Shown: positions 48,640 through 59,763 of the stretch, in pieces
How positions within the stretch are numbered: the first letter of the stretch is position 1
Layout: each line of letters starts with the position of its first letter
Source of the DNA: Candidatus Komeilibacteria bacterium
Lineage (GTDB): Bacteria; Patescibacteriota; Patescibacteriia; UBA1558; UBA10009
Length of the DNA: 59,763 bases
Direction: 5' to 3'
Assembly (NCBI GenBank): GCA_026396575.1
Contig: JAPLWM010000005.1
Coordinates: 1 to 59,763 of the forward strand
Translations under genes and position numbers: made by a program
Notes under the pieces: generated by a model
Database searches by the model: none
Seen by the model: the letters and a program-made list of their open reading frames with translations, nothing else
What the model was told of the DNA's origin: nothing

Positions 48640-48673
48640 GTGGCAGGACTCTGAAAAAACGGAAAGTTTAAGG

Positions 48674-48862
48674 TGGTCGTCTCTCCTAGACGAAGCACGA
48701 ACCTTTTTTACAGAAAACAGCTAGCTGTTTTCTGATTTTTTAGGGCGGGGCGGAAGGGGGGTCTGGGGGGAATTCCGCCCTGCCCTCGCTTCCCGCCGGC
48801 CTTTGGCCGGCATTTTATCCGCCTATCGGCGGGCTTTCTTTTCGCCGCCGCAATTTGGCCGT
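48674..48862 (+). repeat. Island left end (attL arm); inverted copy at 57412-57600
   Basis: 189 bp, 1 mismatch seen (48781); GC-rich hairpins, palindrome cagaaaacagctagctgttttctg. Confidence 0.92.
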
Positions 48863-48966
48863 GCCAGCAAAGCTGGTGCGCCACCTTTTACATTGCTTAC
48901 TTTATCAACTTTCACTAATTAAATCAATTCTTCGATAATTCCTTTCAATCCTGTTGTTTTACTATT

Positions 48967-50889
48967 TCAATTTATTATTGGTTGAATATCCTTATTATTT
49001 TGCGTTAACTCACTATTCCATGCACCCTCTAAATTTACTGTTCCACTATTTGGTCTTTTTTCCATTTCAAGTAAATCAATATCAACTTTTACCGGAATAT
49101 CAGATGCCAATCCAGCAACAAAGCAACTACCTACAGACAAAATTGGAATACTCTGAAACGAAAGTTTGTCTAAATAAGCAACTGCCTTTTCTACGGCATT
49201 AATGTCGTTGTCGTTAATTAGTCTATGAATAAAGTAATTATGAAGCTGAGAAATAATGGTTGCTGAGATATCGTATGGCCTTTGGCTCGCAATCGTTAGA
49301 AAGACTCCGAATTTTCTACCCTCTTTAATAATCTCTTCAAAAGTTTCCAAACGATAATCTTTCCATGTCTCACTTTCTCTTTGTGACATAGTTGAGAGTA
49401 TATTGTGAGCCTCATCAATAACTATATGTAGTGATTTTTTGTCTGATTCTTTTTTATTTTCATATAACTGTTTTGCAATGATTAAAGGAATTATTTTTTT
49501 CATCTCAATATTCACATCTCTAAGACATATAATTGATAGATTTTTAGATTCCGTATTTTCATTTATATCAATTAGTTTTTCTAACATGTCAAATTTTCTG
49601 AACATCCTGCCTATCAGCGGGCCTATATGTTCCTGATTAGAGTATCCTTTTATGATTTCATGAAAATAGTTAAAAACAATCTTTAATTTTAGCTTGCTAA
49701 ACTCATCACTTTTAAAAACCAAATTTTCAACTAAGGTCTTTAAGTGGGTAGTATATATGGGACTTGTATTATTAAAATTTGTAGAATTAGTATTATCCCA
49801 ATAATATTCCTCGTTTTTAGAATGATAATGCAAATTATTTTCTACTTCTTTCTTGAGATTGGTTATGGCATCCTTCTTTTCATCCGTAACTAAATTTATA
49901 AGATCTCTAAAAAGCTCAATAATTAATCCTTCTCTTAAATTTCTATCTTTTTTATCAATAACGCTCGTACATGTATCCTCTATACTTGTAATAACACGGG
50001 CATTAAATGTTGCATTGTCATCTAAAAAGTCGTTGCGGATAACTCTGTCTAAAAATGGTTTCTGTGTTTTTTCAGTTGCCTCTAATAAAACTGATAAAAT
50101 TTCAGTTTTATGTATACTATCTTTTGAAATGGGATATTTTTTCTTGCTAACTTTTTTGCCTGTAGAAAGTTCGTAAACAACCTTATCTTTTGTTATCATT
50201 TCATCCCCGATATATTCGCCATTAAAATCTACTACAACAAAATCAGATTTAGTTTTAAAATCATTATTATTGGAAAATACTTTAAAAAGTTCCGTGTAAA
50301 TCTTTGCAAGCGTGTTTGATTTACCACTACCAGTATTGCCAAAAATACCAATATGACTAGCAAATAAATTATTTACTCCTATTTTTATTTTCTGTGACGG
50401 TTCCTCGGTAAGATTGCCTATAGTTATTGTCTTTTCTCCGTTTTTATAAAAATGATGTAGTGAGTTAAATTCATCTCTATTTAAGAGGTAACATTCATTA
50501 TCAATAAGGGGCATCTCTTTGATACCCTGTTTAAAATGAGTGCCCTCAAAATGGCCAAAAAGAGAAACTTGTAATATCCTATTGATTTTAGCTTCCTCCT
50601 TATTATATTCCTTGTTGTAGTATTTTTCTTCTGAAGTAAATTCTCCTTCAACTTTGCCTATAATACTAACAAATCCTTTAACTACTTTTATATAGCTCCC
50701 AACGGAAACATTCTTCACTGTTTTTCCTTCATACAAAATATGGGAGTGATTTTTGTTTTTGTTTAGTTTTATTTTTATAATCCTTCCGTCAACAGACAAA
50801 ACATGACCAATTATAAAAATTGACTCCTTTATTAATTCCTCTTCAATACTCTTAGTTTTTGCAATCATCTTTACATTCATGGGTGGCAC
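48967..50889 (-). CDS. HerA-like (DUF87) ATPase
   Basis: HAS-barrel-like N-terminus, GNTGSGKS, IDEAH, EGRKFG, SQRP; start may be 50868. Confidence 0.9.
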   Translation of the reverse strand: MPPMNVKMIAKTKSIEEELIKESIFIIGHVLSVDGRIIKIKLNKNKNHSHILYEGKTVKNVSVGSYIKVVKGFVSIIGKVEGEFTSEEKYYNKEYNKEEAKINRILQVSLFGHFEGTHFKQGIKEMPLIDNECYLLNRDEFNSLHHFYKNGEKTITIGNLTEEPSQKIKIGVNNLFASHIGIFGNTGSGKSNTLAKIYTELFKVFSNNNDFKTKSDFVVVDFNGEYIGDEMITKDKVVYELSTGKKVSKKKYPISKDSIHKTEILSVLLEATEKTQKPFLDRVIRNDFLDDNATFNARVITSIEDTCTSVIDKKDRNLREGLIIELFRDLINLVTDEKKDAITNLKKEVENNLHYHSKNEEYYWDNTNSTNFNNTSPIYTTHLKTLVENLVFKSDEFSKLKLKIVFNYFHEIIKGYSNQEHIGPLIGRMFRKFDMLEKLIDINENTESKNLSIICLRDVNIEMKKIIPLIIAKQLYENKKESDKKSLHIVIDEAHNILSTMSQRESETWKDYRLETFEEIIKEGRKFGVFLTIASQRPYDISATIISQLHNYFIHRLINDNDINAVEKAVAYLDKLSFQSIPILSVGSCFVAGLASDIPVKVDIDLLEMEKRPNSGTVNLEGAWNSELTQNNKDIQPIIN

Positions 50890-51889
50890 TATTTGAAATC
50901 TCTTTAAAGACTAGCTCATTTATTTTTTCAAGACTAAATTTATTTCTTTGTTCATCGTCGGTTGGCTCAATTATTTCTATATTAGAATATCTTAATTTCC
51001 CTATATGCATTTTTTCTTTCATTTTTGAATCCTTATCTTGTTCATGGCAAAAAATATAAATTTTTAGCGTTGGGTTGGAATTAGCAGTTCTTAGGGTAAT
51101 TTCTCGTATATGTTCGTCTTCCATTGAAAAACCCATGACAAATAAAACCACATTCTCTTTCTCTAATTCACTTGAATACATCCTTAACAATTCATAATAG
51201 GTTAAATCAATAACCGTTTCCTCAAATTTTTTCTTTTCAGGATTAATGATCGCTATTTTACCATATCTTTCGTCAAAATTCTTTCCACTTTTGTTTAGTA
51301 TCGTTTTGTCAAAATGTTTTAATTTTGAAAAATATATATTGTCTTTAATTTTTTCCCATGTAAGCGATCCGTGTATCTTCATTAGGTTGAAAATTGGTAT
51401 CTCAGAAATATTTTCAAAATGCAGACTTCTTTTTAAAATTGATTTCTTAAAATTACTTAAGCTAAATACTGAATTTAATCGACCAGTAAAACCATCGTTA
51501 TATTCCAAACCGCTCTCTTCCAAAACGACCTCCATTAATATGTCGATATTTGTAGTAAAAATATTTGTTTGTTTACTTAAAATAGTATTTTTCCTTTTTA
51601 ATAAAATGTGACTTATTAATTCGAAGAAATTTTTATAAGCTTTACATGTTGAATTAAATTCTGCTTGTTTTATTGCCTCGATGTTACCGGAGATGACGTC
51701 AAGATTTGGCATCATGATTTTCTCAAAATATTCCTTTTTGATTTTTATCCGTTCAGGCTTCCTAGTTTCGATTGAAAGCCTTGTTTCTATATCACCTAAC
51801 AAAGGTAAAAAAGGGGTCGATAATCCAGCTCCAAAAAGGAAATTGATATGTGAACTTTGTACCGCCTCTTTAATTTCTTGAATATTCAT
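50852..51889 (-). CDS. SIR2-like (SIR2_2) NADase
   Basis: FLFGAGLS, FTTNID, KIHGSL, GFSMEDEHI; overlaps the HerA gene. Confidence 0.88.
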   Translation of the reverse strand: MNIQEIKEAVQSSHINFLFGAGLSTPFLPLLGDIETRLSIETRKPERIKIKKEYFEKIMMPNLDVISGNIEAIKQAEFNSTCKAYKNFFELISHILLKRKNTILSKQTNIFTTNIDILMEVVLEESGLEYNDGFTGRLNSVFSLSNFKKSILKRSLHFENISEIPIFNLMKIHGSLTWEKIKDNIYFSKLKHFDKTILNKSGKNFDERYGKIAIINPEKKKFEETVIDLTYYELLRMYSSELEKENVVLFVMGFSMEDEHIREITLRTANSNPTLKIYIFCHEQDKDSKMKEKMHIGKLRYSNIEIIEPTDDEQRNKFSLEKINELVFKEISNSATHECKDDCKN

Positions 51890-51919
51890 AATTTTAAATC
51901 TTAGGTAATTTAGTTTCTA

Positions 51920-53452
51920 CTACGTGCAATACAGTGTATTTCTATTTTCTATGTGAGTCAAAAACTCCTCAATGGTTTTCGGTAAAATTGAAAGGTTCTC
52001 TTTTTCTTTAACATAGTTAATCTGCATTACAGAATCCTTGAATATACTAGGGGCCACAAAGTAGCACATTGAATCCTTTGTTCCTTTTTGGAATTGTCCT
52101 AAATGCCTTGAAATCGGCCACACTTCCATCATTGTTTGCATGCGTCCTTCTGACATCGTAACTTCAACCAATATACCCTTAACATCCTCGAAACATTCAA
52201 TATCGCCCTTATCTCCAACGCCTCCAGCCGTTGATGTTGGGAGGCCTTCATCATCATAAGGATAATTTGGTATTACTCTAACATTTGGAAATTTAGATTT
52301 AATAGCCAAAGACACAAGAAATTCTAATCTGACTGGGTTTGATAAATATTTCAAAACATCATCTTTGGTTAATTTTTTCTTAGCTAAATTTAACATTTCA
52401 TCCTTAATCCTGTTCCAAGGATAAACACCGATCCACTTGGCCAAAAAGGCGTCTCTCTCGCTAATGCTCAACGGCTTGGCAACAAATGAGATAAGATTTT
52501 TATCCACAGTCGACATATATTCAAAATATGACTCCTCCGTGGTGTATTTTTTATAATCAGAATAAGTTGCTAAAGCATAATCAACCTTTGTTTGTTCATT
52601 CCTGTTTATATCAATAAAACGACCAGCACCCCTTAATGAGATTAATCCCGTTAGTCTCATTTTTCTAATAAACTCATCCGGATAATCAACCATTATTGAC
52701 TTCGGATTAAATTTCTTAAAATCATCGTTCATGATCTGGTTAACACAAATATCCACAATAACTTCCCAGCTCGGGGTATAGCCGTGTTCCTTTCTTATTT
52801 TCTTTATGAGTTTGTATAGCTTCTCTGCGTCGTTATCTTTCCAAAAAATAACTAAGGGCAATTCTAATTTTGAAATTCCGGTCCCGTTAAGCTCTTTATC
52901 AGCATTTATTTTATTGATCACGCTCAATAATAAAATCAGCGGTACATTTTCATTGAGCACTCGTCTAAATGGACTATTGCTTTGATATTTTATAAAGGCA
53001 TTAAGAAAAGCCTGCTGTTCAAATTCTGGGTGCTCGTTATCAACCAATTTTAATCCGATATCAGAAAATCTTATTTTTTCACCATTTTTGTAATAGACAA
53101 AACCAAGCTCTTTAGCAATCTTAAACCAAGTATCGAATCGGGAAGCCCAGCCCTTACTAAATCCGGCTTCTTTATGGTTTTGCGGATTATCCTCAAGAGA
53201 CTTTTTCACTTCGGCATTGGATAATGGTTCTTTTGCTTCAATTTTTTTCTTTACAATAGCACTTATATTGGTCGGCTTGTATAATCCAACCCGAATAACT
53301 TCACCGGAAATTTCTTCAGCCAACTGATCGTCAAGAACTTTTCCATCATAATCCTTTAAGACCCCTAAAAACCACTTAAGCCTTTCCGGGTTTCTAAGTG
53401 TGGTAGTAAATAATAATGGTTTATATTCCGATTCTCTTGTTTTTGTTTTCAT
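51920..53452 (-). CDS. AlwI-family type IIS restriction endonuclease
   Basis: FTTTLRNPER N-terminus; DDEGLPTSTAGG..GDIE..LVEVT catalytic-like C-terminus; follows two MTases. Confidence 0.82.
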   Translation of the reverse strand: MKTKTRESEYKPLLFTTTLRNPERLKWFLGVLKDYDGKVLDDQLAEEISGEVIRVGLYKPTNISAIVKKKIEAKEPLSNAEVKKSLEDNPQNHKEAGFSKGWASRFDTWFKIAKELGFVYYKNGEKIRFSDIGLKLVDNEHPEFEQQAFLNAFIKYQSNSPFRRVLNENVPLILLLSVINKINADKELNGTGISKLELPLVIFWKDNDAEKLYKLIKKIRKEHGYTPSWEVIVDICVNQIMNDDFKKFNPKSIMVDYPDEFIRKMRLTGLISLRGAGRFIDINRNEQTKVDYALATYSDYKKYTTEESYFEYMSTVDKNLISFVAKPLSISERDAFLAKWIGVYPWNRIKDEMLNLAKKKLTKDDVLKYLSNPVRLEFLVSLAIKSKFPNVRVIPNYPYDDEGLPTSTAGGVGDKGDIECFEDVKGILVEVTMSEGRMQTMMEVWPISRHLGQFQKGTKDSMCYFVAPSIFKDSVMQINYVKEKENLSILPKTIEEFLTHIENRNTLYCT

Positions 53453-53456
53453 ATAT

Positions 53457-54362
53457 TTAATAATTGGTAATTAATACTTCTTTAATCTGCTTCTTACCGT
53501 TATTGTGGTAGCTGATGTAATTGCTTTCGATTTTGTGTGTCTTATATTTTTTCATCCAATTAATTAGCAAATCATTCGTGCTACCGTTATAATGGGTTAC
53601 ATTTGATAGAGCAAACTTAACATCTTTTTTATCTAAATTATCAATCATTTTTAGTAAGTCAGCTTCAGCTTTTTGATCCCACCGCTTATTATATTCACTT
53701 GATGTTATTAGATATGGCGGGTCTAAATAAACAAAGTCATTCTTAGAATATTTTCTGTTGGCAAAATATGTTCTAAAATCCTTTGAACTTAAAGTTATCT
53801 TTTTATCTTGGACAAAATCAAAATAGCCATTAAGGGCGTTAACAACATTTTTGTTAAAATCAACATTACCAACCGGCAAATTAAATTTGCCACCGCCATT
53901 AAACCTCAACATTCTGTTAAAACCATAAATAAGCAAAATATACAGAATTAGAGGATCATTCTTTATGTTCTTGTTTACACAAACTCTTAATTTTTCGTAA
54001 CCCTCTTTATTAAATTTGGCAAAATAGGTCTTTTTCCATTCTTTTTTTAATGAGGCCGGAATTACATCTTCTTTATAAGATCGTGAAAGATGATATTTTT
54101 TGATTATCTTTTCTACATTCTTAAAAAATAAAGCTGGGTTACTCGCATTGCTAATCAAGAAACGATGTATGTTAATTAGGTTTTTATCGTTATCGTTTAA
54201 GTAATATTTATTTGCCTGGATATTTAAAAAAACCGTACCGCCACCGACAAATGGCTCATAAAAATTGTTTATCTCCTGCGGAAATAAAACGATCAATTGC
54301 TTCATTAGTTTATATTTATCTCCAACGTAAAACAGTGGGGATCTTTTGATTTTATTACTCAT
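53457..54362 (-). CDS. N6-adenine DNA methyltransferase (Dam/D12 class)
   Basis: SPLFYVGDK, EPFVGGG, YLDPPY, EVLITNY. Confidence 0.93.
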   Translation of the reverse strand: MSNKIKRSPLFYVGDKYKLMKQLIVLFPQEINNFYEPFVGGGTVFLNIQANKYYLNDNDKNLINIHRFLISNASNPALFFKNVEKIIKKYHLSRSYKEDVIPASLKKEWKKTYFAKFNKEGYEKLRVCVNKNIKNDPLILYILLIYGFNRMLRFNGGGKFNLPVGNVDFNKNVVNALNGYFDFVQDKKITLSSKDFRTYFANRKYSKNDFVYLDPPYLITSSEYNKRWDQKAEADLLKMIDNLDKKDVKFALSNVTHYNGSTNDLLINWMKKYKTHKIESNYISYHNNGKKQIKEVLITNY

Positions 54363-56169
54363 TTTTTACTTTTGTTACGAACAAATATTCTTTATGATTA
54401 TTAAAATTTGTATTACCTGTGTTGAAATGTCTGTAATTTTTTTCAAAAACTTTGGTTGACCCCTTGGTCTTTAGAATTCTTTCTATTTCTTGAAGAGTAA
54501 TTTTATTTCGCGATGAATTGCTTTTTGAGTCATAAGTGTTGTTATATGAAACAACTAGATATTTGGCGTCTAGATCTTTTACCAGTTCTGCGAGTTTATC
54601 TTTGGCGTTATTTCGGCAATAATCACTCATGTTTTCTGATTCTGGCTTTAACGCAACGCCATAAAGTTTTGGTTTATCCCATTTAGTTAATGTCTCAAGG
54701 ACATGGTAAAATCTACTGTATTGCCTAGAATTGTAAGGCGGATCAATGTAAACAACATCGGCCTTTATTTTTTTAGCTAAAATATTCGTATCTTCTTGGA
54801 AAATAGATATTTCTTGGGTATCAATCGGATCAATAGGTTTCATGAAAAAACTATCATTTACAAATTCTTTTTTAAAATAGGCGTCAAAATGTCCGACGGT
54901 ATTAGCAATTTTATCAGCAGTATAAAGCAATGAAGCAATTAACATGTAATATTCTCTTTGAGTCAAATTATTTTTATTTTCTTCAATATTTTCTCTAATA
55001 AAACCGATGATTTTAGCCGAATTATTGCTGAAAAATTTACCCCCAAAACTTTTAGAAAAATAATTATCCTCTAAATCATCAGCGTAAATATTATTATAGT
55101 TTTTAATAATACCATCTACTTTATTTTTATCCCAAACTTCATTTCCAAAAAAGGCGCGATATATCGCGTAATTGGAATGTAAGAAATCATTTAATAACAC
55201 TTTTTTGAATTGTTTTGTAGCCACGGCCGAAACCACACCTGTCCCAGCAAATATATCCGCAAAAGAATTTCCACTACATTCTTTATTGATAATAGAAAAA
55301 ATCCATTCAATTAACTTGTGCTTATTACCTATATATCTGCGGTTATGTAATTGAATATGATTTTCCTTTACTTGCGGAATATAAAAGTAATTTTCTTGAA
55401 TTTTTTCCGCGGTTATTTCGTAGGATGGTTTTTTGACTTCAAATAATGTAAAAAGTGTGGCCTGCATCCCGCCGTCGGCAACATAATCAAGGCCCTCTTT
55501 TTGTTTTTGTAACTTTTCGTGAAAACTATAATGATTATTCTCAGAAACAATAATAAAATCAATTACAGGTATCCCCATTATTTCTCCAGCTTGTACAATT
55601 TTTTCAACTATTTGATTATCTTTTTCACTTGGCGATGAGTCGCCTGATGGGTGATTGTGAATTAAGATGACGCTGGCGGCATTTAATTCCGTAGCTGGGT
55701 AAAAAATTTCTCTTGGATGTAGAAGTGCCTTATCTAATAGTCCAACACTAACGATTTCTTTTTTGAGTAGAGAATTTCTCGCATTAAGATATAAGCAAAC
55801 TAAATACTCTTTTTTCTTATCTCTTAAATCATAAGTAAATGATAAAACATCTTGAGAATTTTTAATAATAATTTCATTTGATTTTTCATCCGCATAAAAT
55901 CTTTTTACCAAAGAAATCGCCGAAGAAATTTGTAACGCCTTTGCTTGACCAATCCCGGAAATTTCCAAAAGATCATTAACTGTTATATTTAAAAAGTTTT
56001 TTCCAAATTTTTTTATAATACCCTCTGAGAGCTGCTTAACATTTTTACCTTTTATGCCGCTACCTAAAATAATTGCTAAAAGATCGCTTTTAGAAAGTGC
56101 ATCTGGACCTTTTTCTAAAAACCTTTCGCGAGGTCTATCAATTTTTGGGATATCCTTTAACTTTCCCAT
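54355..56169 (-). CDS. RadC (JAB) domain fused to an N6-adenine DNA methyltransferase
   Basis: RPRER, HPREIF, HNHPSGD..PS..D then RRYIGNK, DIFAGTG, YIDPPY. Confidence 0.88.
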   Translation of the reverse strand: MGKLKDIPKIDRPRERFLEKGPDALSKSDLLAIILGSGIKGKNVKQLSEGIIKKFGKNFLNITVNDLLEISGIGQAKALQISSAISLVKRFYADEKSNEIIIKNSQDVLSFTYDLRDKKKEYLVCLYLNARNSLLKKEIVSVGLLDKALLHPREIFYPATELNAASVILIHNHPSGDSSPSEKDNQIVEKIVQAGEIMGIPVIDFIIVSENNHYSFHEKLQKQKEGLDYVADGGMQATLFTLFEVKKPSYEITAEKIQENYFYIPQVKENHIQLHNRRYIGNKHKLIEWIFSIINKECSGNSFADIFAGTGVVSAVATKQFKKVLLNDFLHSNYAIYRAFFGNEVWDKNKVDGIIKNYNNIYADDLEDNYFSKSFGGKFFSNNSAKIIGFIRENIEENKNNLTQREYYMLIASLLYTADKIANTVGHFDAYFKKEFVNDSFFMKPIDPIDTQEISIFQEDTNILAKKIKADVVYIDPPYNSRQYSRFYHVLETLTKWDKPKLYGVALKPESENMSDYCRNNAKDKLAELVKDLDAKYLVVSYNNTYDSKSNSSRNKITLQEIERILKTKGSTKVFEKNYRHFNTGNTNFNNHKEYLFVTKVKNE

Positions 56170-56171
56170 AG

Positions 56172-57020
56172 TTATTTTTTATACACTTCTTCTAAAGTTT
56201 TGCCACTTTCAGTTTTCCATTTTTTCCATCCGCTAGTTGAATTTCCTAAAATAATATCAGATGCGGCGCTTGGACTATTAAAGACATAATCTTTAATAAA
56301 TGCATACAAATTATTATCTTTTTTCCTAAGATATTTATTTAACAAAAGCTTTTCTATAATTTTTTGATTACGTTCAATTACCGCTTTTGAAATATCATTT
56401 GACGCAGTTGAATCTTTATAAACAACAAACCCATCATTCGTCATGCGGCCTGTTGCTAAAGCGTTTTTACCTTTGCAAGTAAAAAGAGGATCTGATATAT
56501 TTTTTTGTTCTTTAGAAATAACTTCTTGTAGAATAGGATATCCTAGGGCGGAAAGAAGCAATTTTAAATTTTCCAAAAATTCTTCTATTTCGGCGATGTC
56601 AGCTTCAGACAAAGAGGGCAAAGTAGATTCTGTGCCATTTTCTAAATTAAATCGTTTTGCTTGGGTTGCTAAAGCTAAACATCTGCTTTCTAAATATCTA
56701 ACATGAGCCTTTGTTAAATTATTATCTTTACTCACAAACGCCACTGCGGTTTGCCAAAAATCTTTTGAACTATCATGAGTAGACAGTCTATTCCATAAAT
56801 TTTCTGCCTCACCGATATATGCAGTAGGTAAAAGAGCATCTTCACTTTCTTTACCAACAAGAAAATATATAGCCGGCTTATTACATTCGGGACGTTGTTT
56901 GGTTTCTTTTAACTTATTTCTAGGAATAACAATTGCTTGACCAACCCAATTACTTAATTCAGCGGTTTTTAAGCCATTTGGTTCGCCGTCAATTAAAAAT
57001 ATTTTTATTGTCTTTGCCAT
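56172..57020 (-). CDS. GIY-YIG nuclease with DUF4357-like domain
   Basis: AIYFL..AYIGEAE..RL..H; FNSPSAAS..ILG..SGWKKWK. Confidence 0.85.
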   Translation of the reverse strand: MAKTIKIFLIDGEPNGLKTAELSNWVGQAIVIPRNKLKETKQRPECNKPAIYFLVGKESEDALLPTAYIGEAENLWNRLSTHDSSKDFWQTAVAFVSKDNNLTKAHVRYLESRCLALATQAKRFNLENGTESTLPSLSEADIAEIEEFLENLKLLLSALGYPILQEVISKEQKNISDPLFTCKGKNALATGRMTNDGFVVYKDSTASNDISKAVIERNQKIIEKLLLNKYLRKKDNNLYAFIKDYVFNSPSAASDIILGNSTSGWKKWKTESGKTLEEVYKK

Positions 57021-57024
57021 AGAA

Positions 57025-57225
57025 TTATTTAATTAAATCATCGACGCCAACTTCAAGCGCTTTGGCAATCTTAGTCAATGTTTCAATTGTTGGGTTTTGA
57101 TTAACGCCATTTTCAACCTTTACAATGGTATTAAGCGACAAATCAGCCAAGCGGGCTATTCTTTCAAGTGAAAGACCTTTTTTACCCCGCAGTTTCTTTA
57201 AGTTTTCGGAAATGTTATTTGACAT
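57025..57225 (-). CDS. XRE/HTH regulator, probable R-M controller (C) protein
   Basis: 66-aa HTH_3 pattern (ENG..NPTIETL.KIAKALEV) leading the R-M operon. Confidence 0.85.
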   Translation of the reverse strand: MSNNISENLKKLRGKKGLSLERIARLADLSLNTIVKVENGVNQNPTIETLTKIAKALEVGVDDLIK

Positions 57226-57237
57226 AGTTATTGAAAA

Positions 57238-57258
57238 TATATACTATTATAGTATATA
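57238..57258. promoter_or_regulatory. C-box-like operator palindrome
   Basis: tatatactat-t-atagtatata just upstream of the HTH start. Confidence 0.55.
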
Positions 57259-57411
57259 GAATATAATATAAAGGATTCTTTCTTGGTATTACAATGATAA
57301 TGAATTTTTAGGTTTTTGTCTATTACTAGGGAGTTCCTAAATATTGCCCGCGCACGGGTGGGTGGGGCAAGGGCAATATATTAAAAGTGGCGCATTCCGC
57401 GTAAGCGGAAT

Positions 57412-57744
57412 ACGGCCAAATTGCGGCGGCGAAAAGAAAGCCCGCCGATAGGCGGATAAAATGCCGGCCAAAGGCCGGCGGGAAGCGAGGGCGGGGCGGA
57501 ATTCCCCCCAGACCCCCCTTCCGCCCCGCCCTAAAAAATCAGAAAACAGCTAGCTGTTTTCTGTAAAAAAGGTTCGTGCTTCGTCTAGGAGAGACGACCA
57601 TTCAATACATTCAAAACTTTTATCCTTACGCCCCAGCGTAGCTGGGGCGCTACCCGCGCCGCCAAAACCTATATATTTAGGGATTAAATTGTAAGGCGAA
57701 ACAAAATCCAGCAGAGCTTTTTTCTGGAACAGGCGGCGGTTCGT
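57412..57744 (-). repeat. Internal inverted copy of the island circle junction (attP-like)
   Basis: Reverse complement equals 59269-59418 joined through TGGTCG to 48680-48862; one mismatch per arm. Confidence 0.92.
57550..57744 (-). pseudogene. Orphan recombinase 3' end encoding the attP-form C-terminus
   Basis: TNRRL..FECIEWSSLLDEARTFFTENS* versus ..FECIEWSGMPDL.. in the full gene. Confidence 0.8.
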
Positions 57745-57900
57745 AAAGCGCCGGAGGCGCTTAAAGCACAAATAATTTAATCCTAGATCATTAAATTATT
57801 TTGCTTGCCAATTTTTTCCGCTTTCCCGCCTTTGGCGGGAAAACAAAGCAAGTTTTCCCATAATAGGCCAAAAGCCACTTAAAATAACAAACTAAACACT

Positions 57901-59496
57901 ATGAAAACAAAATACTTTCTTTATGCCAGAAAATCAACAGAAGACGAGGAACGGCAAGTAATGAGCATTGAAGCTCAATTAACGGAGTTGGCTGACTTTG
58001 CTAAAAGAGAAAATATTGAAATTGTGGAAACTTTCATTGAATCTAAAAGCGCAAAGAAACCGGGCAGAGAAATATTTAACCAAATGATGAGTAAGGTATA
58101 TTCCAGCAAAGAGCCTATCGGCTTAATCGCTTGGCATCCGGATAGATTGGCTCGTAATAGCGTTGATGGAGGACAAATCATTTATTGTATAGATTTAGGT
58201 AAAATAGTTTCTTTGCGCTTTCCAACATTTTGGTTTGAGCCAACTCCGCAAGGATTATTTATGCTTCAAGTGGCTTTTGGCCAATCTAAGTATTACTCTG
58301 ACAATTTAAGTGAAAATGTTAAGCGTGGAATCAGGCAAAAACTCAGGCGCGGAGAGTGTCCGCACTTTGCTCCGTTTGGCTATATTAATAATCCTAAAAC
58401 AAGGAACCTTGAACCGGATGAAGTTAAAGCTAAAATCGTTAAAAAAGCGTTTGAAGAGTTTGCCACCGGCAAACACACCTTGGAATCTCTAAGCGAGTGC
58501 CTGAGTTTTTGGGGCATTACGAGCAAGACAGGAAAACCGCCTTGTAAAGCCACTATTCAAAGGATGTTAAATAACATTACCTATTTAGGTATTATTAAGC
58601 ATAACGGTGAAAGCTATGAGGGCGTTTTTCCTGCTCTAGTTGACAGAGCGACTTTTGAAGCTGTTCAGAAAGTCCAAAAACAACGAGCAAGGCCCAGGAA
58701 GTCCAAAAAGAGGCATAACTTCCCATTTATTGGGTTTTTAAGCTGTGGCGAATGCAAGGCCTCTATTACTGCTCAATTTGCCCACGGCAACGGCGGAACT
58801 TACAGGTATTACCGCTGTACCAAAAGATTGGGGCCTTGCGGGCAAAAATACTTACAAGAGGGCTTGCTGGCCGAACAGTTAAAAGATCAGCTTCAAAAAG
58901 TCGCTCTGCCTGATGATTGGGCTAAGAATATGTTAGCTAAAGTAGATGTTTGGGAAAAAGAAACTAGGCAGTCCAGTCAATCTTTCGCCCAAAATCTTAA
59001 TGACAAAATTAATGAAACAGAGCAGAAATTAGATAGATTGGTAAATACCTTTTTAGAGGGAAATATTGAAAAAGAAATATACCTAATTAAAAAAGATGAA
59101 TTGATTAAAACAAAAACAGACCTTAATAACAAAAAGTCTGATTTTGGGCGAAAGGGCAATTATTGGATTGAACCTTTGCGAAACTGGATAAACACTGCCA
59201 ATCATTGCGGAAAACTTGCTTTGTCCAATGATTTTTACGAAATTAAATCATTGGCGGAAAAAATTAGAACGAACCGCCGCCTGTTCCAGAAAAAAGCTCT
59301 GCTGGATTTTGTTTCGCCTTACAATTTAATCCCTAAATATATAGGTTTTGGCGGCGCGGGTAGCGCCCCAGTTACGCTGGGGCGTAAGGATAAAAGTTTT
59401 GAATGTATTGAATGGTCGGGGATGCCGGATTTGAACCGGCGACCTCACGCACCCCATGCGTGCGCGCTAGCCAACTGCGCTAATCCCCGTTATTGA
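57901..59496 (+). CDS. Large serine recombinase (integrase)
   Basis: YARKS catalytic Ser, DRLAR, recombinase domain, CGEC..YYRC Zn ribbon, coiled coil; 3' end overlaps the tRNA antisense. Confidence 0.95.
   Translation: MKTKYFLYARKSTEDEERQVMSIEAQLTELADFAKRENIEIVETFIESKSAKKPGREIFNQMMSKVYSSKEPIGLIAWHPDRLARNSVDGGQIIYCIDLGKIVSLRFPTFWFEPTPQGLFMLQVAFGQSKYYSDNLSENVKRGIRQKLRRGECPHFAPFGYINNPKTRNLEPDEVKAKIVKKAFEEFATGKHTLESLSECLSFWGITSKTGKPPCKATIQRMLNNITYLGIIKHNGESYEGVFPALVDRATFEAVQKVQKQRARPRKSKKRHNFPFIGFLSCGECKASITAQFAHGNGGTYRYYRCTKRLGPCGQKYLQEGLLAEQLKDQLQKVALPDDWAKNMLAKVDVWEKETRQSSQSFAQNLNDKINETEQKLDRLVNTFLEGNIEKEIYLIKKDELIKTKTDLNNKKSDFGRKGNYWIEPLRNWINTANHCGKLALSNDFYEIKSLAEKIRTNRRLFQKKALLDFVSPYNLIPKYIGFGGAGSAPVTLGRKDKSFECIEWSGMPDLNRRPHAPHACALANCANPRY
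59269..59418 (+). repeat. Island right end (attR arm); inverted copy at 57595-57744
   Basis: 150 bp, 1 mismatch (ccagttacg vs ccagctacg). Confidence 0.92.
59413..59489 (-). tRNA. tRNA-Pro(GGG)
   Basis: CGGGGAT/ATCCCCG acceptor, CACGC/GCGTG stem with loop ATGGGGT, GGTTCAAATCC, CCA. Confidence 0.95.
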
Positions 59497-59542
59497 TATT
59501 AATTTAAGCACCTTTACCCGCCAGAGCGATAGCGACGGCGGG

Positions 59543-59578
59543 CCATGCATGCGCGCTAGCCAACTGCGCCACACCCCG
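59543..59578 (-). pseudogene. 5' half of a second tRNA-Pro, broken in the anticodon loop
   Basis: CGGGGTGTGGCGCAGTTGGCTAGCGCGCATGCATGG then unrelated hairpin; TATAAT just upstream. Confidence 0.75.
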
Positions 59579-59763
59579 ATATTAGTGTTATTATAATCAT
59601 AAATCTAAATTTTACAAGCTTTTTAGGCTCTACGCCAAATAGTGTGGTGGAAAAGTCAAAAGCAGTGGTAATATTAGCTTGAAAACAGAGTTTCTCAACT
59701 CAAGGCTAAAATTAATCACTGCTTCTATGAAAAAATGTATCAGTAAAATGTTAAATCTGCAAG

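Follow-up and report, generated by a model that had tools for sequence, protein, structure and literature searches.

Why would a mobile element that has already integrated keep, beside its integrase gene, a second and inverted attachment site that stores another end for that gene? The question is raised by a 59,763-nucleotide (nt) stretch of Candidatus Komeilibacteria DNA (phylum Patescibacteriota; GenBank assembly GCA_026396575.1, contig JAPLWM010000005.1, positions 1 to 59,763). This stretch, referred to as the window, is one whole contig of a ~1-Mb genome in 40 contigs and has the integrase gene at its right end. The window holds a defence island of 10.7 kb (48674-59418), inserted at the 3' tip of the tRNA-Pro(GGG) gene by a large serine recombinase, here termed Int, whose gene forms the right end of the island. 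An initial annotation, made from the letters alone, had described the gene as a recombinase with two interchangeable C-termini. We examined it alongside 159 related loci, of which genome contigs supplied 80 and metagenome contigs 79.

Three attachment sites in one island

Three sites with the common core TGGTCG were found: attL (flank-core-P', from 48674), a spare attP that is complete and inverted (P-core-P', 57412-57744), and attR (P-core-tRNA, 59269-59418). They are connected by two inverted repeat pairs, the overlap of which is the core itself. The arms of the first pair (57595-57744 and 59269-59418) are 150 nt long, 99% complementary and 1524 nt apart; across the 1-Mb genome, the only other copy of the 150-nt arm is its own partner. 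A single mismatch separates the two arms (57641/59372), giving A versus V in the peptide. The second pair (57412-57600 versus 48674-48862; 189 nt, 99.5% identical) brackets the cargo. TGGTCG makes up the final 6 nt of both 150-nt arms and is the antisense of tRNA positions 71-76, including the CCA. The core lies within the Int open reading frame (ORF), as the initial annotation had stated.

On the plus strand, attL consists of the core (48674-48679) followed by a P' arm to position 48862, and it begins 34 nt past the stop codon of an AI-2E transporter gene. The spare attP is read on the minus strand, with its P' arm at 57412-57594, its core at 57595-57600, and its P arm, an inverted copy of integrase codons ~457-504, at 57601-57744. 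On the plus strand at 59269-59418, the P arm and core of attR, delimited by the repeat search, form the right arm of the first inverted repeat. They meet the complete tRNA-Pro(GGG) gene on the minus strand (59413-59489; ARAGORN; Rfam tRNA, 61.9 bits), which has an encoded CCA and provides the B' half of the target. This tRNA was the single match in an Rfam search of the island, with the GC-rich P' arm showing no family match.

The spare site has the architecture of a working attP. In every locus the outer end of the repeat is the recombination core, and the copy runs on past it into a complete P' arm. The shared core measured 4-7 nt in the nine loci for which all three junctions are known. We examined 54 loci for the position of the motif GAAC and found it in both the P' arm and the tRNA T-arm in 45; in 44 of these, the GAAC of P' is exactly 5 nt further from the core than that of the T-arm. 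Work on the A118 integrase reportedly established a 5-bp offset as what separates attP-type from attB-type half-sites of serine integrases. This geometry argues that the spare site would be a competent attP, with a P' arm that mimics the T-arm. A palindromic crossover dinucleotide (CG) was considered as the reason for a second site and rejected, as the tRNAs always abut the P arm and never P'.

A large serine integrase with two C-termini

The integrase gene (57901-59496, plus strand) encodes 531 amino acids (aa) in its integrated, attR form. Pfam domains Resolvase (PF00239, 8.7e-21, residues 6-152), Recombinase (PF07508, 3.4e-12), and Zn_ribbon_recom (PF13408, 2.3e-07) were identified, and the residues around the serine nucleophile, Y8-A9-R10-K11-S12, were invariant across 28 homologues. 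Residues 8-442 matched YokA of SPbeta (E value, 1.4e-13) and the A118 Int, and coiled-coil helices were present at residues 338-385 and 391-414 in the predicted fold of a 72%-identical homologue. On these sequence features we assign Int to the large serine integrases, the class of phiC31, Bxb1, and Ccr of SCCmec. The ~85 C-terminal residues of Int found no match among solved structures, including those of the SPbeta and A118 integrases.

Two ends of this protein are encoded in the window. The integrated form terminates ...EWS-GMPDLNRRPHAPHACALANCANPRY, and the final 84 nt of its ORF run antisense through tRNA-Pro(GGG). The stored form, on a minus-strand ORF at 57550-57771, terminates ...EWS-SLLDEARTFFTENS. 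Read on the minus strand, the stored copy leaves the 150-nt arm, continues into the P' arm with 14 different codons, and is followed there by three terminator-like hairpins (57563-57540, 57479-57463, and 57456-57441), such that the spare attP retains the native gene end plus terminators. The initial annotation had reported both ends, one read through the antisense tRNA and one kept on the opposite strand just upstream of the gene, and was right on each, coordinates included. Since the attachment core lies 14 codons ahead of the native Int stop, integration swaps a conserved C-terminal helix for antisense-tRNA sequence.

It had further proposed asking which of the two tails homologues conserve, and the answer is the stored one. 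Among the best 120 database homologues, the tails after W-S were variable antisense-tRNA sequences in 72 (some ending after one codon) and ended x-[LI]-L-N-x-A-R-T-x-F-E in 28; the remaining 20 were cut or odd. The stored tail of the window belongs to the x-[LI]-L-N-x-A-R-T-x-F-E class. It was conserved in 71 stored copies, representing 66 distinct DNAs, across which the mean entropy at codon positions 1, 2, and 3 was 0.64, 0.47, and 0.98, the third position being the most variable. The Leu/Ile residues were kept despite changes at codon positions 1 and 3, and synonymous Leu codons occurred. Variable third positions, together with the retention of Leu/Ile, give the stored tail a coding-type signature. 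The Arg codon was always CGA, a sign that the DNA itself is constrained too. These patterns indicate that the stored tail is the native, selected one, and that the tRNA-derived tails, which are not conserved, are a product of integration.

Structure prediction gave the native tail a definite form. In the predicted fold of a native-tail homologue, it is a helix (residues 508-522, predicted local distance difference test [pLDDT] ~83) that follows a disordered linker. When the last 60 residues were predicted in complex with the core, the interaction prediction score from aligned errors (ipSAE) was 0.52, against 0.00 for the best of three controls, with a partner pLDDT of at least 63; the runs shared at least 86% of contacts, and no interface is given. 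Of 157 solved pairs and 215 mismatches, 116 and 2, respectively, attained the mark used for such complexes, 18 of the solved pairs and both mismatches doing so at or below 0.60. The prediction, weak support by the rating of the tool itself, hints that the last 60 residues may pack on the core.

A trait of an integrase family

The inverted repeat was present in 116 of the 159 related loci, and most of the other 43 are cut by contig ends. The repeat in itself is far beyond chance. Fifty-four contigs span both arms and both outer flanks, and in all of them the stored native-type tail lies to the left and an antisense tRNA to the right. The tRNA was Pro in 41 of these contigs and Gln, Trp, Arg, Asp, Val, Lys, Ala, or Phe in the rest. 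The layout was also found in 4 of 5 single-contig genomes (one degenerate), and the repeat ended 0-6 nt from the tRNA 3' end in 11 of 20 loci from single-contig genomes or large contigs. Within the genome of the window, two paralogues (47% and 43% identical) likewise read into antisense tRNA-Asn and tRNA-Ser, and the 47%-identical one (contig C9), the paralogue with enough flank, has the same three sites and both repeat pairs. The inverted-repeat layout is thus a family trait and not an accident of the window contig. Of 29 loci with enough left flank, 8 showed the second repeat pair, in which P' arms of 145-305 nt surround the cargo.

When 401 genomes of the phylum were sampled, 83 contained members of the family. 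Curated plasmid and phage records held integrase relatives at most 29% and 28% identical, respectively, and among viral contigs 88 pattern matches included none encoding an integrase relative. The transporter flanking the island had no close relative in 40 related genomes (best identity, 34%), leaving no empty site to compare. An integrase island with an internal inverted attP was undescribed in the accessible portion of the literature searched, which included a tycheposon preprint and stopped short of subscription journals and supplements.

Does the integrase segment flip?

We tentatively propose, at a little short of an even chance, that integration removes a functional C-terminal helix and that the spare attP lets the full gene be rebuilt by inversion. 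The truncated Int of the integrated state would be altered, disabled, or changed in direction, keeping the island locked in. Were the 1.8-kb integrase segment, from the spare attP to attR, to invert, the gene body and the native tail would be rejoined, whether by homologous recombination across the 150-nt arms or by the action of Int on attP x attR. After inversion the gene would lie downstream of the tRNA promoter and be co-directional with it, not facing it. The flipped state would be rare or short-lived, and assemblies would show only the locked state.

The geometry for such a rearrangement is in place: an exchange between the arms joins the gene body to the stored tail and its terminators and leaves the tRNA untouched. 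The tRNA strand has a promoter-like site at 59617-59590, with no terminator found on the tRNA side; the predicted tRNA transcription is convergent with the integrase gene. The identity of the two arms had a median of 99.1% over 110 repeats, 46 of which were perfect, and the arm region encodes the linker, the most variable part of Int between elements. Near-identical arms in a linker that varies between elements imply that the two arms exchange sequence.

Recombination beyond a single island is suggested by one genome (G143, loci L206 and L207) in which two different family integrases target tRNA-Ser and two contig ends share 55 nt. There, the inner integrase has a native-type tail from a P' arm that is also stored in the neighbouring island at the same tRNA-Ser, and its own spare copy carries a different P' allele. 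It seems possible from this arrangement that attP recombines with an occupied junction, or that islands accrete in tandem.

Several observations weigh against the proposed inversion. The first is its absence from assemblies. The initial annotation had suggested inversion between the repeats as a tail switch, and it had the geometry right; the inverted state that this predicts was encountered 0 times, versus 54 times for the orientation of the window, among contigs spanning both repeats and both flanks. Neither was a flip seen in the 11 closed or large-contig loci with a repeat and an abutting tRNA, and the loci with repeats of 90-94 nt, shorter than common assembly word sizes, were all in the state of the window. 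Second, the spare site is not always intact. Each of the four public runs has a contig, at genome-like depth, in which the reverse of 48652-48702 runs straight into 57700 and beyond, with changes at 57734, 57754, and 57786; in place of 99 nt of the P arm it has 22 nt that match the attL left flank exactly. This variant spare site could not rebuild an intact gene, and it may have arisen by gene conversion from attL or come from another island copy. In run X5 it was the only form covering 57734-57786, which means that the spare copy can decay without quick loss of its carrier. Third, the tRNA-Ala subfamily keeps the CGAAC DNA motif and not the tail peptide (in the frame chosen), implying that part of the tail conservation is a DNA-binding constraint. 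Finally, recombination between attP and attR is not expected of serine integrases in the classical view; one in-gene attP, as in Mx8, would already give truncation on integration and restoration on excision; and the need for a spare copy is itself a matter of argument.

Seven contigs (L126, L132, L134, L145, L058, L071, and L055) look flipped, with the tRNA in sense upstream of the leader, and all seven stop in or just past the second arm. In L055 the tRNA flanks both sides, and in L124 and L171 (~2 kb) attP flanks both sides. Such same-flank contigs show that assemblers can mis-walk a symmetric graph, and the seven flipped-looking contigs can be explained in the same way; we set them aside as evidence of a flip, given that short-read graph walks can account for them. 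All 23 public runs available were in the form of Logan contigs, and four of them were analysed. Logan contigs are built on 31-letter words; as the 150-nt arms are longer, the two orientations yield identical words. The join of 48679 to 59419, which would mark an empty target site, was absent from these contigs, which drop rare variants and are silent on excision.

A more specific form of the proposed inversion would have Int itself recombine the spare attP with attR, making the locus a self-resetting toggle that controls direction and dosage with no separate directionality factor. As both sites carry the same P arm, the reaction would regenerate its own substrates and be freely reversible. Only the flipped state would make full-length, active Int, which would then flip the gene back to the truncated, tRNA-opposed state; genomes would accordingly be expected to show almost only the "off" state, as they do. 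We regard this form as unlikely.

Alternative explanations

Foremost among the alternatives is an element with two attP sites and no switching in situ. Its free circle would carry two identical inverted attP dividing it into two arcs, one with the integrase and the other with the cargo; one site would insert, and the other would be merely carried along or would serve the reassortment of integrase and cargo and the accretion of islands. Much of the P' arm distribution agrees with this. Cargo is bracketed by inverted P' arms in the window (189 nt) and in the 8 of 29 relatives noted above (145-305 nt), a 92%-identical P' arm stands at another locus of the same genome (C17), the attL P' arm of L047 differs from the stored one only in its first 8 nt, and the tandem islands of G143 have a P' arm in common. 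That reliable assemblies show a single orientation also fits. Were either attP usable, however, both orientations should be common, and they were observed at 54 to 0. No free circle was recovered, viral contigs contained no relatives, and plasmid and phage records reached at most 29% identity. The near-identity of the arms, moreover, is left unexplained. We consider a two-attP element possible, if somewhat improbable.

The inverted copy and the leader might instead act through complementarity, on RNA or DNA, to hold integrase expression low, with the stored tail as a by-product. A transcript from the side of the neighbouring helix-turn-helix (HTH) gene would have the antisense arm on the 5' side of the integrase ORF and the sense arm on its 3' side, and a plus-strand promoter-like site (57219-57247) does lie left of the spare site, with none found in the leader. 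The leader (57745-57900, plus strand), which runs from the spare site to the start codon, has three patches complementary to the integrase ORF: 57810-57821, 57843-57858, and 57866-57880 are exactly complementary to 59254-59265, 59209-59224, and 58268-58282, respectively. Leader patches of at least 12 nt against a locus' own ORF were found in 92 of 98 loci, versus 1 of 98 with a shuffled leader. They covered a median of 36.5 nt against a locus' own ORF versus 8 nt against the ORFs of other loci, and their targets are conserved parts of the ORF that cluster at codons ~110-140 and 430-460. Pairing alone would not need a repeat that ends at the core in every locus or a complete P' arm with its 5-nt offset, and the conservation of the tail is of the coding type. 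Control by complementarity therefore appears quite unlikely as the account of the spare copy.

It is very improbable that the stored ORF (57550-57771) is expressed alone, either to supply the C-terminal module in trans or to act as a directionality factor: counting from the earliest possible start, the frame has a median open length of 75 codons, and the window has an AGGA 9 nt ahead of a TTG start, but 71 loci show no conserved start codon or ribosome-binding site, and their first starts, TTG or GTG in most cases, vary widely in their distance from the inner repeat end. An assembly artefact, in which the inverted copy is a mis-join near a metagenome contig end, can practically be dismissed; the contig does end 267 nt past the gene in a repeat found at four other contig ends, and mis-walking of this structure by assemblers is evident from contigs with the same flank on either side, yet 116 of 159 loci, drawn from many assemblies, have the layout, as do 4 of 5 single-contig genomes and contigs that appear from their record names to be long-read assemblies (L067, L069, and L099), and public contigs from four runs in two studies cover both unique junctions of the inverted copy.

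Cargo and neighbouring sequences

All of the cargo genes identified are on the minus strand. They encode a HerA-type helicase (48967-50889; Pfam DUF87/HerA, 8.6e-19), a SIR2-like protein (50852-51889; SIR2_2, 5.9e-12), an AlwI-type restriction endonuclease (51920-53452; RE_AlwI, 1.8e-42), a D12 adenine methyltransferase (53457-54362; MethyltransfD12, 7.7e-27), a RadC-JAB/D12 methyltransferase fusion (54355-56169; RadC, 4.3e-37, and MethyltransfD12, 3.5e-37), and a DUF4357 protein (56172-57020; DUF4357, 2.2e-19). The fusion protein has 604 aa and combines a RadC-like JAB domain, with a UPF0758 N-terminus, and a D12 methyltransferase; its gene overlaps the preceding methyltransferase gene by 8 nt.

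A small Xre/Cro-type HTH gene (57025-57225, minus strand; HTH_3, 2e-14) adjoins the spare site. Of 54 related loci with enough flank, 23 carry a homologue on the matching side and strand, and divergent promoter-like sites (57219-57322) are located by the gene. We consider it a candidate regulator or directionality factor. The earlier statement that no separate recombination directionality factor gene is evident is consequently unsafe.

The left flank of attL (48640-48673, plus strand), the 34 nt between the AI-2E transporter stop and the core, is similar to the core-proximal arm of family integrase genes and, in frame with the core, ends R-W-S. An older island at the same tRNA may have left it behind, or P arms may mimic the natural tRNA flank. 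Beyond the 189-nt identity of the P' arms (48863-48890 versus 57385-57411), a hairpin, perhaps a structured element of the distal end of P', occupies the same position in both copies, with differing stems and conserved flanks. The third P' arm copy (contig C17:34959-35155, locus L004; 92% identical) has the same core before it, abuts a gene start, and likewise retains a hairpin beyond the identity; it looks like an attL whose integrase end is off that contig.

On the right is a tRNA remnant: an 81%-identical copy of the tRNA-Pro 5' half (59543-59599), 54 nt upstream of the intact tRNA and on its strand, that stops in the anticodon loop. One public run contained a contig that skips 59446-59551. 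The final 138 nt of the window (59626-59763) are identical to the ends of contigs C5, C10, C29, and C37, indicating a multi-copy element that breaks the assembly there.

Significance and comparison with known systems

The island family is large: 83 of the 401 genomes sampled from a single phylum have a member, and relatives have also been binned to several further phyla. Its layout itself encodes targeting of the tRNA 3' tip, truncation of the integrase on insertion, and a stored, inverted, complete attachment site. Serine integrases are prized genome-engineering tools owing to their one-way action, and their natural reversal or silencing is known for few phages. If the spare copy is a switch, it would represent a new form of integrase control with no separate directionality factor; if it is a site of module exchange, it would explain the shuffling of defence cargo in small-genome bacteria. 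In both cases, the family is a source of many natural attP/attB pairs whose target is universal and conserved.

As with Hin/Gin/Pin and intragenic invertons, inverted repeats here bracket a segment whose flip would swap the C-terminal coding end. Unlike Hin/Gin/Pin, however, Int has 531 aa with integrase-type C-terminal domains (versus invertases of ~190 aa), the arms are 150 nt (versus ~26 bp), the recombinase gene itself is the invertible unit, and two orientations were not observed (0 versus 54). The Int locus is not a Hin-type invertase system.

A circle of the island formed by attL x attR would resemble the yeast 2-micron plasmid (Flp/FRT) in carrying two long, identical inverted repeats with sites in mid-repeat and two unique arcs. 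Flp is a tyrosine recombinase, and the 2-micron plasmid replicates, its flip serving copy-number amplification. In contrast, neither a replication gene nor a free circle was found for the island.

The integrase of phage Mx8 is a tyrosine recombinase, and its target is also the 3' end of a tRNA gene. As described in a review passage (PMC6070905), attP lies within int, integration makes a new 3' end (IntP/IntX), and the behaviour of the integrase is reportedly altered; the precedent invoked by the initial annotation stands to that extent. Int is similar in that its own ORF contains the attachment core and its C-terminus changes on integration. It differs in being a serine recombinase, with resolvase-type domains only in Pfam, and hence is not a member of the Mx8 group. 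The spare inverted gene end is a hallmark of the Int family, with none described in the passage on Mx8 (PMC6070905).

With large serine integrases such as SPbeta SprA/YokA and Listeria A118/LI Int, Int shares resolvase, recombinase, and zinc-ribbon domains and a long coiled-coil insertion. It also shares a short core common to attP and the target, and the 5-nt offset that is said to distinguish P-type from B-type half-sites. Unlike the SPbeta and A118 integrases, Int has ~85 extra C-terminal residues and targets a tRNA 3' tip, with a core that is the antisense of the CCA end; and, unlike elements of that type, the island places attP inside the integrase ORF and keeps a second, inverted, complete attP in the integrated element.

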